In this document: one piece after another, positions 1 through 3,801 of the stretch
Numbering within the stretch: position 1 is the first letter of the stretch
Layout of the letters: every line of letters begins with the position of its first letter
Virus record (IMG/VR): IMGVR_UViG_2706794664_000016
DNA length: 3,801 bases
Strand: one strand, 5' to 3'
Source: a virus
Taxonomy: Duplodnaviria; Heunggongvirae; Uroviricota; Caudoviricetes
Notes under the pieces: model-generated
What the model saw: only the letters and a program-made list of their open reading frames with translations
What the model was told of the DNA's origin: nothing
The model's database searches: none
Program-made: the position numbers and the translations under genes

Positions 1-111
1 CCAATGACTAGTCTAAAAACTAGTATTAAGACTATCACTTATTTAAGTGATACTGGTTGTCTGGAGATTCAGGGGGCCAGTCTAATGCGTATTCCTTTAT
101 ACTATCTTTAG
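1..111 (+). CDS. 3' end of an upstream gene of unknown function (frame 1, open from the window edge; C-terminal peptide ...[35 protein letters not shown], stop TAG 109-111); may instead start at ATG 4-6
   Basis: Frame 1 is the only + frame open from position 1. All three minus-strand frames carry stops within 1-110, so no minus-strand gene crosses this region. Too short to assign a function. Confidence 0.35.
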
Positions 112-319: not shown

Positions 320-357
320 AAAAAGGCATAGTATGTCATTCGTACTATGCCTTTTCT
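318..357. terminator. Bidirectional rho-independent terminator between the small + ORF and the convergent lysozyme gene
   Basis: A-run 318-324; stem GGCATAGTA (325-333) pairs with TACTATGCC (343-351), extendable to about 11 bp with a 5-nt loop; T-rich tract 352-357 continuing beyond. Reads as hairpin plus U-run on both strands. Confidence 0.6.
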
Positions 358-807
358 TTATTTGTTTTTAAGTACTGCAATCATGGAATTCACACGGTTT
401 GGTGTCTGCCTGTACCATAGAGAACACTTAGCCTGTTTAATTGCTTCAAGGTAATCATGTGCTTTCAGGGCTGCTAACATCTTACGGAATTTCTTCACCC
501 CGCCAATACCTAACTGGAAGGTCATGATAATAATAAAATCATTCCAGTCATCGGGAAGATTTAACCCTAATGTCTGTACCTGCATAATTGTTTTGGCTAA
601 ATCGCGAGATAGTAACTTGTCTGCTTCGCTTTCAGTAATGCCAGTACTAAAATCTTCTCCCGCCTGAATTAAGTGACCATATCCAATAGTACTACATCCT
701 AAACTATCAGCATATGGATAGAATTTCCCATTTCTGAAGTACTTCAAATTTGCCTGATACTCTTTAGTACCTTCATATTCTTTTAATCGTGTTTTTAAAT
801 CGCTCAT
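358..807 (-). CDS. T4-type lysozyme (GH24 family endolysin / N-acetylmuramidase), soluble, no signal or SAR sequence
   Basis: 149 aa. TIGYGHL matches T4 lysozyme YTIGIGHL; ITESEADKLLSRDL matches ITKDEAEKLFNQDV; FQLGIGGV matches FQMGETGV; SLWYRQTPNRVNSMI matches SRWYNQTPNRAKRVI. No N-terminal hydrophobic segment. Terminator immediately downstream. Confidence 0.9.
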   Translation of the reverse strand: MSDLKTRLKEYEGTKEYQANLKYFRNGKFYPYADSLGCSTIGYGHLIQAGEDFSTGITESEADKLLSRDLAKTIMQVQTLGLNLPDDWNDFIIIMTFQLGIGGVKKFRKMLAALKAHDYLEAIKQAKCSLWYRQTPNRVNSMIAVLKNK

Positions 808-817
808 TTACTAAATA

Positions 818-836
818 CCTATAATGAATTTATAGG
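818..836. promoter_or_regulatory. Perfect 7-bp inverted repeat CCTATAA-N5-TTATAGG in the 36-bp divergent intergenic region; candidate operator and/or back-to-back -10 elements
   Basis: The left arm contains TATAAT (820-825) on the + strand and the right arm gives TATAAA on the minus strand, each 10-20 nt upstream of the respective start codon (ATG 844 on +, ATG at 807 on -). SD AGGA 834-837 for the + gene. Confidence 0.35.
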
Positions 837-843
837 AATATTT

Positions 844-1278
844 ATGATGAGTGAATGGAAATACTCGGATGATTGGAGCGAGGAGGAAATGTTATCCGGT
901 GAATATGCTGGTTTCGTTTATATCTTTCAGTTTGAGGATGGTTCTAATTATGTCGGTGCTAAGCAAATCTATCAGCGGGTTAAGGATGCGAGAAAGCTAA
1001 AGCCCACTTCAAAGGAAAATGGCTGGCGTGAGTACCTCAGTAGTTCCAATGTCGTTAAAAACAAAATTGAAAATGGTGAACAGTACTCAAAAACGATTCT
1101 ATGGTGCTTCGCAACTATGCGAGAGGTAATGATTGTAGAGGCAATACTGATCCTTCATCAGATGCTTAAACCGGAATGTTTGAATCTGGCAATGATGAGT
1201 AAGATTAGATCACCAAATGCAAAGGATAAAAAAAGACTACTCGGAATAGTACAGGAACTATTGGAGTACTTGAATTGA
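844..1278 (+). CDS. Small acidic-N-terminus protein with a GIY-YIG-like motif (putative GIY-YIG fold nuclease, T4 endonuclease II-like in size); function unproven
   Basis: 144 aa. Motif GFVYIFQFEDGSNYVGAKQ fits the GIY-x(9-11)-YIG pattern, with Arg about 7 residues downstream (R45) and Glu at 94/99 as candidate catalytic residues. Good SD (AGGA, 6-nt spacer). No DNA-binding extension seen. Confidence 0.7.
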   Translation: MMSEWKYSDDWSEEEMLSGEYAGFVYIFQFEDGSNYVGAKQIYQRVKDARKLKPTSKENGWREYLSSSNVVKNKIENGEQYSKTILWCFATMREVMIVEAILILHQMLKPECLNLAMMSKIRSPNAKDKKRLLGIVQELLEYLN

Positions 1279-1287
1279 GGTAAATAT

Positions 1288-1788
1288 ATGGCAAGTGGAA
1301 TAAATGGGATTGGTAGTATAAGGAACTATATACAAACGCAGGGAGTTAGATTAAATAATCAATTCCAGAATGAAATAATTAAACGTTCCAAGCTACTATC
1401 CCAAAGAATGCAGGGTGATTTGAATAATAGCGTTGACCGTGGGGCAGTGGGCTTTACTCAACGTTCCATCCTTTTCTTCTATAGAAAGGTTGGGAGAAAT
1501 TCAGTTACATCGACCATCATGGTTAAAGATATTCAGGCTAAGTACCTTTATCAAGTACTGGTACAGCCAAAGGCAATTGATAAGTTTATACCTACTTCAT
1601 CTACAAGATTAACTAAGCAGGGCAACATTTCAGGACTGAAAAAGAATCTTTTAAGTGAACGATATAAGGTAGTGAAGGGTAAGAATGGTAAAGAACGATT
1701 AATTGATACCGCAAAGAAAGATACCAAGAAGAAAACCAAACGTGTAATTGGCTTACGTGAGAAGAAACAACGTCGCCTTATCTATTGA
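1288..1788 (+). CDS. Hypothetical basic protein with Lys/Arg-rich C-terminal tail (possible nucleic-acid-binding protein)
   Basis: 166 aa. GAGG SD 7 nt upstream of ATG; start lies 10 nt after the preceding stop. C-terminus KKDTKKKTKRVIGLREKKQRRLIY is strongly basic. No TM segment and no recognised motif. Confidence 0.7.
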   Translation: MASGINGIGSIRNYIQTQGVRLNNQFQNEIIKRSKLLSQRMQGDLNNSVDRGAVGFTQRSILFFYRKVGRNSVTSTIMVKDIQAKYLYQVLVQPKAIDKFIPTSSTRLTKQGNISGLKKNLLSERYKVVKGKNGKERLIDTAKKDTKKKTKRVIGLREKKQRRLIY

Positions 1789-1863
1789 CTTCTATAAGGA
1801 AGCCAATGATGGTGTAAGGGTAATTATGAGCGGTATTCAGGGAACATTCAGGATAAGTAGACA

Positions 1864-2175
1864 ATGAATTTTGAGCAACATTATGGTGATTTAATAAGCA
1901 AGATTAAGCTAAATGGCATGACACCAGATGGTAATAGTATGCCAATTAACAAATGTTTTCTTGATAAGAAATTTCAAAAGGTCGTTAAGAAAAGTAATTA
2001 TCAGATTGATAGCTATATGAACGTTATTTATGAGAAGAAGAAAGATTTCAAAGTTGGTGAAGTACTTGAATGGGAATTACAGGGTGAAAAGATGCCTGTA
2101 TTTCTAATTGAGAGTAAAAAGCTCTTTGTGAAGGGTAAACATTTTTGGGTATATGCCGTGGGGATTATTGAATGA
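1864..2175 (+). CDS. Hypothetical 103-aa soluble protein, translationally coupled to the downstream holin-like gene
   Basis: Stop overlaps the next start in an ATGA arrangement (ATG 2172-2174 / TGA 2173-2175). No TM or lipobox. Preceded by the only sizeable intergenic gap in the operon. Confidence 0.65.
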   Translation: MNFEQHYGDLISKIKLNGMTPDGNSMPINKCFLDKKFQKVVKKSNYQIDSYMNVIYEKKKDFKVGEVLEWELQGEKMPVFLIESKKLFVKGKHFWVYAVGIIE

Positions 2176-2465
2176 TTAGTATATTGATTGAGTTTCTGAA
2201 GTCAGGATTGGATTTTTTCATTAAGAAGAAAACTATTGAACAGGAAGTAAAGAAAACGAATGTAGAAGGGCAGATTGAAACGAATAAAGAAGAGATTGAA
2301 AAGGTAACATTCCACTGGCGTAATGCCCTCGGTTTTGTACTAACCCTTATCATTCTCTATAACTGGATCATAGTACCAGTACTTGATGCTTTTGGAATTA
2401 TTGTGATCCAAGTTCCATTAGGACAACTTTTGCAAGTGCTATTGATTATGGTTGGTGGAAGCTGA
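2172..2465 (+). CDS. Putative holin resembling the holin-of-3TMs / GTA-type holin family
   Basis: 97 aa. Charged coiled N-terminal region (EQEVKKTNVEGQIETNKEEIEK) followed by W-R-x3-G-x(8)-Y-N-W-x3-P-x-L-x2-F-G (FHWRNALGFVLTLIILYNWIIVPVLDAFG), which matches my recollection of the conserved core of that family, then a second hydrophobic segment. SD GGGGA 7 nt upstream. Confidence 0.55.
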   Translation: MISILIEFLKSGLDFFIKKKTIEQEVKKTNVEGQIETNKEEIEKVTFHWRNALGFVLTLIILYNWIIVPVLDAFGIIVIQVPLGQLLQVLLIMVGGS

Positions 2466-2525: not shown

Positions 2526-3320
2526 ATGAGTGATGCAATTACTACAGCAGCAATAAAAAAATTGTATGGACTATCCGCTGGGCAATGTAATATTTGCCGA
2601 ACTTCTCTTTTTAAAGAGCAGGTTCACATCGGACAAATGGCTCATGTAATAGCCAAAAGCCCAAAAGGACCAAGGGGCGATGACCTGTTAGCAAATGACA
2701 ATTCTTATGAAAATCTTATCCTGCTTTGTGCAAATGATCATATTCTTGTTGATAGAGATCCATTCACTTATACAGTAGAAAAATTGCATCAAATCAAAAG
2801 TGAACATGAGGCTTATATACAGGGTGCAACCGATAATACATTATTTTCAGATAAAAAAAGACAGTCAGATGTGGACTTTTTAAACGCTTACTTCCACTTT
2901 ACACCGTTTGCGAGGGTACGTTCATTAGTTGAAACTTTACCTAATTCTTTTCACATCAATCTTCTTATTTTTGGAGATCAGTTTGATAGTATTTTAAGGG
3001 ATTTTCCAGCGAGCTATCCTTTAAATGATAAATTACTCCACGGTCATTTCCAAAGTTTTATTGATTCGTATAAAAATATTGATTTTATCATATCTGGACA
3101 TTTGCCGATTTCCGATAATAGAAACATTCAGGTGTTTGGTGGTGCGAATCATAATCTTCTTTGTCATTTCAATTATGATGAGCTACCATCCGATAAAGCA
3201 CTGATAATAGAACAAGATTTGATTTCACATAAAATATCTCTTCTTAATGCTTATGAAGGTCTTATAAATTACCTTAGAGCTTATTACCCTGAGGTGGAAA
3301 TTTACTCTCCTATTCTATGA
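2526..3320 (+). CDS. HNH (His-Me finger) nuclease-domain protein with an uncharacterised C-terminal domain of about 185 aa
   Basis: 264 aa. C21-N-I-C24 ... A-H40-V-I ... N63-LILLC68-A-N-D-H72-ILVDRDPF has the spacing of an HNH zinc-finger nuclease motif (CxxC, catalytic His, structural Asn, C...H); the H-x-L-x-D-R tail resembles HNH_2-type domains. Residues 80-264 carry no motif I recognise. SD AAGGA; strong terminator downstream. Confidence 0.75.
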   Translation: MSDAITTAAIKKLYGLSAGQCNICRTSLFKEQVHIGQMAHVIAKSPKGPRGDDLLANDNSYENLILLCANDHILVDRDPFTYTVEKLHQIKSEHEAYIQGATDNTLFSDKKRQSDVDFLNAYFHFTPFARVRSLVETLPNSFHINLLIFGDQFDSILRDFPASYPLNDKLLHGHFQSFIDSYKNIDFIISGHLPISDNRNIQVFGGANHNLLCHFNYDELPSDKALIIEQDLISHKISLLNAYEGLINYLRAYYPEVEIYSPIL

Positions 3321-3336
3321 GTGTTATGAAATATAT

Positions 3337-3361
3337 AAAAGCCCCTTATGGGGCTTTTTTT
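3337..3361. terminator. Bidirectional rho-independent terminator between convergent genes
   Basis: Perfect stem AAAAGCCCC (3337-3345) / GGGGCTTTT (3350-3358), loop TTAT, followed by a T-run to 3361 on the + strand; an A-run precedes it, giving a U-tract on the minus strand. The minus-strand gene's stop codon (3346-3348) sits in the loop. Confidence 0.7.
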
Positions 3362-3801
3362 ATGGTTGTTGTAATAGTAATGGTTTCTTCGTTTTCTCTA
3401 AAAACCGAATGGCTTTGTTTTATTATTTCCCTAACATCTGGTTTCTTTATTTTTTTGTAATTTAATAAAGCCGAAACTAAAACAGAAACAAAAAGTATAA
3501 GTGATACTATACAAATAGTTAAACCTTCTAAAGGTGATAGTTGGGGGTCTATATATAATCCATACATAGAAACAGCGGAGATAGCAATACCGAAAACCAT
3601 CCACATATCTATAGGGCTTTTATTTGTCGATTTGACCGTAGTGTACTTTTTGACTAAGTCCGTACCTGATAGCACTGTTAAAATTAATGATAATATAGCG
3701 AGGGCAGTATTTACATTAAAATTTAGCTTAGCGAATAAAAGCAACATTAGTAAAATAAAAATAAGTAACGCTATGATTAAAAATATTCCTTTCTTGTCCA
3801 T
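3346..3801 (-). CDS. Predicted integral membrane protein with about 4 TM helices and a charged C-terminal tail; function unknown (candidate immunity, exclusion or holin-like protein)
   Basis: 151 aa from an ATG lying exactly at the window edge, so the true start may be further upstream. Four hydrophobic stretches (about residues 6-24, 33-46, 66-84, 94-113), then NYKKIKKPDVREIIKQSHSVFRENEETITITTTIKKAP. Confidence 0.65.
   Translation of the reverse strand: MDKKGIFLIIALLIFILLMLLLFAKLNFNVNTALAILSLILTVLSGTDLVKKYTTVKSTNKSPIDMWMVFGIAISAVSMYGLYIDPQLSPLEGLTICIVSLILFVSVLVSALLNYKKIKKPDVREIIKQSHSVFRENEETITITTTIKKAP

Follow-up and report, generated by a model that had tools for sequence, protein, structure and literature searches.

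The closest described relatives of the protein considered here are the SegE-like enzymes of T4-like phages (PF19835; Bp7 gp184, RB16p243 and T4 SegE), in which a GIY-YIG catalytic module is followed by 120–210 further C-terminal residues that are presumed to bind DNA. Their genes are free-standing, lie between conserved genes and occur sporadically in the variable nrdC/nrdD regions; RB16p243 (359 aa, between nrdC and nrdD) and Bp7 gp184 (271 aa) both occupy classic homing-endonuclease positions. I-TevI likewise carries, beside its catalytic domain (PDB: 1LN0), a linker, a zinc finger and an HTH DNA-binding domain. Other members of the superfamily are T4 endonuclease II (EndoII or DenA; PDB: 2WSH), a small stand-alone phage nuclease, and CMoRE (PD-T4-3; PDB: 9U75), a type IV restriction enzyme with a GIYxY-YIG motif and a C-terminal 5hmC-sensing domain (PMC12923530). 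Slx1-type GIY-YIG enzymes are structure-specific, minimal stand-alone forms included (PMC1564403), and catalytic roles have been assigned to the conserved Arg, Glu and Asn of GIY-YIG enzymes (PMC2988022).

The window analysed here, a stretch of 3,801 nucleotides from a virus of the Caudoviricetes (IMG/VR record IMGVR_UViG_2706794664_000016), encodes a protein of 144 residues that is a genuine GIY-YIG nuclease domain, belongs to the SegE (homing-endonuclease) family and is devoid of a DNA-targeting domain. That its reading frame stands far beyond chance is confirmed by the Pfam match, the homologs, the dN/dS values and the AlphaFold model, and by sequence and structure alike the protein belongs to PF19835 and to the GIY-YIG superfamily. 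PF19835 (SegE_GIY-YIG) is its sole Pfam match (E = 2.1e-16; 60.7 bits against a gathering cutoff of 25), with residues 5–104 aligned to positions 1–102 of the 123-position profile. The canonical GIY-YIG profile PF01541, which the initial annotation had proposed for a search, gave no match to the protein at E <= 1 and was touched only by a distant relative (P0136; E = 0.0025, under the cutoff). PHROGs and PADLOC both return 'homing endonuclease', and in PADLOC the generic 'HEase' model (E = 4e-5) was the only one matched, no other defence model among them; the label 'NAD synthetase' of the best PHROG match (PHROG 447) conflicts with all other evidence and was set aside as a mislabel. Phage relatives of the protein are all Seg-like endonucleases of T4-like phages (28–46% identity), and PDB sequences searched with the protein and with the family profile gave chance matches only. 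Short stand-alone relatives are common: among the best 150 clusters of an exhaustive search, about 73% are 100–199 aa long and 21% at least 200 aa, and several short phage relatives have already been named automatically as 'SegE-like GIY-YIG domain-containing protein'. The GIY-YIG annotation is sound but fairly ordinary, the kind being known already and experimentally uncharacterised.

The ORF is preceded by a Shine-Dalgarno sequence (AGGA, 834–837), and a second in-frame ATG at 847 gives the 143-aa MSEWKY... start found in relatives. The two peptides singled out in the initial annotation (SDDWSEEEMLSGE, residues 8–20, and GFVYIFQFEDGSNYVGAKQ, residues 23–41) are present exactly as described, the endolysin to which the gene was said to be divergently paired is a GH24 lysozyme 36 bp away, and the view of the protein as a minimal core without a DNA-binding extension is borne out by the PF19835 match, by a single-domain structural model and by superposition over the full length on the catalytic module of longer enzymes.

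The AlphaFold model, built from a 42-sequence alignment, is a single compact domain (pLDDT 94, pTM 0.88) with the GIY-YIG core fold, a three-stranded antiparallel sheet with helices in the order strand, strand, helix, strand, helix (strands 23–30, 35–41 and 81–89; helices 69–76, 92–106 and 126–143). The values tabulated for this model against known structures were 7.1 for the I-TevI catalytic domain, 6.3 for CMoRE, 5.6 for the UvrC N-domain and 5.2 for T4 EndoII. The best predicted viral structures were Bp7 gp184 and a 357-aa relative (TM 0.80 over about 150 columns); all 144 residues, from the N-terminal strand to the C-terminal helix, superpose on the catalytic module of these long enzymes, so that no DNA-binding domain is left over. 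The protein shares 31–33% identity with the SegE-like T4-type enzymes, with W11, F24, Y26, F30, Y36, G38, K40, W61, Y64, S66–68, E99 and N114 in common, and its gene, like theirs, is free-standing between conserved genes; it differs in ending with the catalytic module and in occupying a fixed slot in a temperate prophage. With the I-TevI catalytic domain it shares 17% identity, sequence or profile similarity is undetectable, the alpha-1 region that bears R27 in I-TevI is replaced by a long insertion, and the linker, zinc finger and HTH domain are absent. Compared with CMoRE, it has no second domain and is the product of a conserved core gene rather than of variable cargo.

The active site can be followed through this fold at all but one position (Table 1). 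Y26, Y36, G38, E99 and N114 are unchanged in 33 of 33 orthologs and distant relatives, and the T4-like SegE-type enzymes keep the same core residues. Among 42 homologs (49–85% identity), the invariant residues are W5, G19, G23, Y26, F30, Y36, G38, K40, Q41, N59, W61, Y64, S67, S68, V71, G78, L86, F89, M92, E99, I103, N114, K120 and P124. The single uncertain position is the counterpart of the catalytic Arg (R27 of I-TevI), for which no residue is strictly conserved: position 47 is K or R in 33 of 33 orthologs and distant relatives, position 45 is R, K or G, and the segment containing both is not modelled as a helix. The equivalent of the I-TevI alpha-1 region is a 25-residue insertion, mostly non-helical in the model, with a W..Y.SSS signature. 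E99 and N114 are 15 residues apart, the same spacing as between E75 and N90 of I-TevI. Alignment of the family profile with the I-TevI catalytic domain using hhalign gave a probability of 0.5 and covered the alpha-2/beta-3 segment only, so the catalytic equivalences with I-TevI rest on fold, motif order and spacing. The initial annotation had placed a downstream Arg and Glu at plausible positions and looked to structure prediction for the fold and its Tyr, Arg and Glu residues; the fold, both tyrosines and an invariant Glu are there, but the Arg lacks a certain equivalent. It had also called the acidic N-terminus atypical. Residues 1–22 have a pI of 4.05 against 9.1 for the core, but this stretch falls inside the PF19835 match, is conserved in the family and keeps W11 even in the T4-like enzymes; so acidic an N-terminus is normal for this subfamily.

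Table 1. Features of the window, residues of the 144-aa protein and long orthologs from related loci.
Feature	Position	Strand	Remarks
IS2 end	1–92		abuts DUF2730-like gene
DUF2730-like coiled-coil gene, truncated	93–319
Terminator-like hairpin	321–355		15-bp stem
GH24 (T4 e-like) lysozyme/endolysin	358–807	-	PF00959, E = 1e-11; conserved upstream neighbour
Divergent lysozyme/GIY-YIG junction	808–843	.	36 bp between start codons
Stand-alone SegE-family GIY-YIG nuclease gene	844–1278	+	ATG start, 144 aa
g192	1288–1867	+	conserved downstream neighbour; starts 9 nt past GIY-YIG stop
g103	1864–2175	+	conserved 103-aa protein; syntenic in all relatives; 4-nt overlaps with g192 and g97
g97	2172–2465	+	holin-like membrane protein; PF11351 GTA_holin_3TM, 25.0 bits against cutoff 24.8
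HNH-like gene	2526–3320	+	264 aa
Terminator-like hairpin	3337–3358		called on both strands
Multi-pass membrane protein gene	3346–3801	-	151 aa
'GIY' motif	F24-V25-Y26		144-aa protein
'YIG' motif	Y36-V37-G38		144-aa protein; Y26 and Y36 about 10 residues apart
Conserved basic residue	K47		R45 variable
Family signature	W61/Y64/S66-S68
Catalytic Glu	E99		downstream N114; C-terminal helix 126–143
Long ortholog L018	32–748		238 aa
Long orthologs L019/L020	8001–8918
Long ortholog L021	1274–2191
Long ortholog L041	about 4503–5423		about 306 aa
Long ortholog P0123			305 aa
Long ortholog P0125			300 aa

An identical protein is encoded on the Shigella sonnei chromosomes HE616528.1 and CP026802.1, at the right end of a siphovirus-like prophage that is riddled with IS elements and adjoins mipA/gapA. 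The genes follow in the order tail tip, 98 aa, DUF8377, DUF2730, lysozyme (minus), GIY-YIG, g192, g103, g97 (holin-like), 264-aa HNH-like, 151 aa (minus) and 241 aa. Searched for at near-identity among GenBank phages, complete E. coli genomes and plasmids, the window DNA returned only the IS2 end and one 260-bp piece. The DUF2730-like gene that is truncated beside IS2 in the window is intact at 90 aa in L001–L004, and further IS insertions are found in the tail-tip gene of the S. sonnei copies L002 and L004. A 1-nt T insertion at position 1786 (ATCTATTGAC, where L001 has ATCTATGAC) frameshifts g192 in the window, leaving a 166-aa ORF (1288–1788) with the rest readable to 1867; the gene is intact (192 aa) in S. 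sonnei L001–L003, and L004 (CP026802.1) has the same frameshift. The S. sonnei prophage is decaying. A weak structural model of g192 resembles nothing like a DNA-binding fold. As to the lysozyme, its best PHROG is phrog_13211 (E = 2e-39), the C-terminal lysozyme domain of a 'baseplate hub subunit and tail lysozyme' family, with the generic endolysin family phrog_7 weaker (E = 3.5e-13).

The lysozyme and GIY-YIG genes lie head to head, and their junction contains a dyad spanning about 800–855 (CTCAT...AAATACCTATA...TATAGGnATATTT...ATGAG) that takes in both Shine-Dalgarno sequences and both start codons, being made of two near-identical initiation regions back to back (AGG, an A/T spacer and ATG on each strand). 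The junction RNA folds at about -17 to -20 kcal/mol, burying both Shine-Dalgarno sequences and both start codons (-19.6 kcal/mol in the window, z -6.5, 0 of 200 shuffles; -24.9 in L005). The core, ATAAATACCT...AGGTATTTAT, is found again in most divergent loci despite differing sequence, with dyads in the same place in L005, L008, L010, L012–L015, L019, L025, L029, L031, L033, L035 and L039. The dyad may be merely two identical initiation regions set back to back; alternatively, it may act as a hairpin or operator through which both genes are controlled together. A sigma-70 promoter scan gave 19 hits against 15.8 expected in shuffled sequence, none of them convincing, and comparison of the window with Rfam turned up no family. 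A strong terminator-like hairpin separates the convergent DUF2730-like and lysozyme genes; its A-run and T-run would suit both directions, and it would cut the GIY-YIG operon off from upstream late transcription unless antiterminated. A second strong hairpin of this kind lies between the convergent HNH-like and 151-aa genes.

More than 140 homologs were found at E <= 1e-3, nearly all of the 120 listed being 138–152 aa long and spread across the Enterobacterales (Shigella, E. coli, Enterobacter, Lelliottia, Phytobacter, Rahnella, Serratia, Klebsiella, Cronobacter, Salmonella, Citrobacter, Kosakonia and Pluralibacter). PF19835 is present in every listed homolog, and most are unnamed or 'hypothetical protein', with a few UniRef entries named 'Putative endonuclease SegE-like'. 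Every context examined had the same order of genes: lysozyme, GIY-YIG, a protein of 186–192 residues corresponding to g192, one of 103–108 residues and one of 96–99 residues, g97 being the last conserved gene of the module. In five loci (L036, L038, L040, L054 and L055) the lysozyme is co-directional with the nuclease and the downstream genes (lysozyme, GIY-YIG, g192, g103, g97), so the divergent pairing is not obligatory and the inverted lysozyme of the window is one of two arrangements. To avoid bias, three surveys of presence were anchored on g192 rather than on the nuclease. The gene was intact in 4 of 4 species-representative genomes, in 17 of 19 IMG/VR contigs (the other two deleted) and in 15 of 15 evaluable metagenome contigs; together, 36 of 38 loci were intact and 2 had an internal deletion, and the slot was empty or replaced in none of the 38. 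Identity to the Shigella copy is 83, 63, 63 and 58% for the nuclease and 81, 65, 64 and 62% for the lysozyme, and divergence of the nuclease keeps step with that of its neighbours from 97% down to about 40% identity. The nuclease is under purifying selection, with a dN/dS of 0.07–0.12, rough values given that synonymous sites are near saturation. Divergence in step with the neighbours and a low dN/dS show vertical inheritance of a functional protein and not the pattern of a sporadic invader. Since both the two-part architecture and the sporadic distribution are absent, we label the protein SegE-family, or homing-endonuclease-derived, and not a homing endonuclease.

The modules are also mosaic. 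In the Enterobacter-type prophages L010 and L011 (9508–11633), the lysozyme and GIY-YIG genes are identical (dN 0–0.003), g192 is divergent (dN 0.26, dS 1.2) and the g97 protein is identical again, which places a recombination breakpoint exactly at the border between the nuclease gene and g192. A similar swap is seen at g97 (L024 versus L001).

Two kinds of variant occur in the slot. The first comprises orthologs of 238–305 (about 306) residues (L018, L019–L021, L041/L042 and P0125), in which about 95–160 N-terminal residues with two Cys/His-rich, zinc-ribbon-like repeats precede the GIY-YIG core; the extension gives a weak DUF723 match (E = 0.006, under the Pfam cutoff). The locus is orthologous (lysozyme, nuclease, g186–192, g103–108, g97) and the 143-aa core is 46–56% identical to the window protein with all catalytic residues, but the window protein lacks the N-terminal extension. 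Long forms fall in at least two places of a neighbour-joining tree, so the extension was gained or lost more than once. P0111 (140 aa), considered as a short form amid long ones and hence as a recent domain loss, was ruled out by L041; the L041/L042 gene is called from an internal Met, and its open frame reaches about 165 codons farther upstream, for a real length of about 306 aa. The second kind is a natural deletion, in frame and about 95 codons long (residues ~18–112), in L027 (2847–2996), which removes the catalytic core and retains the first 16 and last ~33 codons; L028 (2848–2967) has the same deletion plus a 1-nt frameshift. The lysozyme and g192 are intact in both, which indicates that the prophage can do without the gene, at least as far as its persistence goes. 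L028 and the intact L007 come from a single metagenome (3300011818).

The reading that we favour, and regard as probable on balance, is that the gene encodes a complete SegE-type catalytic module standing alone, an active nuclease that derives from a homing endonuclease and has become a fixed, resident prophage gene. As predicted from its residues and modelled fold, the protein would be an active metal-dependent enzyme that nicks or cleaves DNA. Judging by its position, it would be made together with the late and lysis genes. Its origin would lie in a free-standing homing-endonuclease lineage, of which it would now be a fixed resident that is not currently mobile. Isolated GIY-YIG catalytic domains, that of I-TevI for example, bind DNA poorly, so a stand-alone core may need a partner. 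Without a targeting domain the protein probably either cuts with relaxed specificity, or self-associates, or acts with such a partner; EndoII and CMoRE, which act as tetramers, offer a model for self-association (PMC12923530). Candidate substrates are host DNA, the DNA of related phages that compete with this one, or intermediates of the phage's own replication.

Among isolated phages, only the T4-like DCP80 (L043, PQ671644.1) has a g192 homolog; its 3334–5708 cluster contains g192-like (28% identity, E = 1e-14), g103-like (E = 3e-5) and lysozyme (37% identity, E = 3e-23) genes. Directly upstream of its g192 homolog, in the slot held by the GIY-YIG gene in prophages, is a gene for recombination endonuclease VII; the correspondence is suggestive, as an analogy and no more. 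We consider it rather unlikely that the homing-endonuclease core has been domesticated as a fixed, selected part of a lysozyme–nuclease–g192–g103 late module, with the endonuclease VII of DCP80 a non-orthologous replacement for it; the DNA-processing step of benefit to the phage would then be debranching before packaging, or degradation of host or rival-phage DNA.

That the gene is still a mobile, Seg-like, free-standing homing endonuclease, which cuts the lysozyme/g192 region of phages without it and spreads by double-strand-break repair with co-conversion, we judge to be unlikely. SegE family membership agrees with it, as do the placement of a free-standing ORF between two conserved genes, like the seg genes of T4 (PMC2988022), the breakpoint at the border of the gene in L010/L011 (lysozyme and nuclease identical, g192 dN 0.26), the deleted and intact alleles in one metagenome, and the long orthologs with putative DNA-binding repeats. 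The short form, however, has no targeting domain, an empty site is found in 0 of 38 anchored loci, mosaic breakpoints also fall at other gene borders such as g97, and divergence that follows the neighbouring genes speaks for vertical descent rather than repeated invasion.

Two further alternatives are quite improbable, each to a like degree. The protein could be an analogue of EndoII, a small oligomeric GIY-YIG enzyme that nicks and degrades the host chromosome late in infection. EndoII is likewise a stand-alone phage nuclease of similar length, and the initial annotation had held the protein to be nearer to it than to Seg-type enzymes and proposed a comparison; yet sequence and structure both give SegE and I-TevI as the closest kin, the prophage is temperate, the window shows no sign of the DNA modification by which T4 tells its own DNA from that of the host, and one lineage has deleted the gene. 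Alternatively, its specificity could be for DNA structure, as in Slx1 or EndoVII, and it would debranch intermediates of replication and recombination before packaging, for which no sequence-reading domain is required; the endonuclease VII gene in the equivalent position of DCP80 is consistent with this, as is the precedent of the structure-specific, sometimes minimal, Slx1-type enzymes. Hardly credible, finally, is a catalytically dead remnant kept for the DNA signals of its neighbours (a lysozyme promoter, a shared initiation region) or for a non-nuclease role of the protein: with only 36 bp between the genes the lysozyme promoter must sit within the GIY-YIG coding sequence, embedded promoters stabilise the seg and mob genes of T4 (PMC2988022) and both ends of the gene survive in the deletion allele, but a dN/dS of about 0.1 shows selection on the protein sequence itself, the most strictly conserved residues are exactly the catalytic ones, and the five loci with a co-directional lysozyme need no embedded promoter for it, yet keep the gene intact.

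The initial annotation had further counted two nuclease-like genes in the operon. The HNH-like gene is present but found in the Shigella lineage only; after g97, other lineages hold a KAP NTPase, a serine recombinase region or other genes. The first ~105 residues of its product match the HNH module of CBASS-type SAVED-HNH effectors and the candidate system PDC-M68A (E = 4e-23 to 2e-21), and the remainder of the 264 residues gave no match. It is lineage-specific cargo, probably defence-related, and not a partner of the GIY-YIG gene. With the convergent gene for the 151-aa membrane protein it possibly forms an uncharacterised prophage defence pair. At the prophage end, just past the right end of the window (L001 12992–13717), a 241-aa protein conserved in several relatives (L012, L014 and L015) is weakly matched in PADLOC by a 'mad2' component (E = 2e-11) and by type II methyltransferases. 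Taken as a whole, the interpretation in the initial annotation is partly supported.

For annotation, hundreds of 'hypothetical protein' entries in prophages of Shigella, E. coli, Enterobacter, Klebsiella, Serratia, Salmonella and Cronobacter can be relabelled as GIY-YIG nucleases of the SegE family, and the HNH-like gene is best handled apart, as candidate defence cargo. The short and long isoforms in one orthologous locus provide a ready-made comparison for the gain or loss of nuclease specificity, of relevance to engineered I-TevI-type nucleases. An active stand-alone core would exemplify, in nature, how the catalytic module of a GIY-YIG homing endonuclease can work when its targeting domain is missing; it would also be a case of a selfish nuclease turned into a stably selected phage gene.
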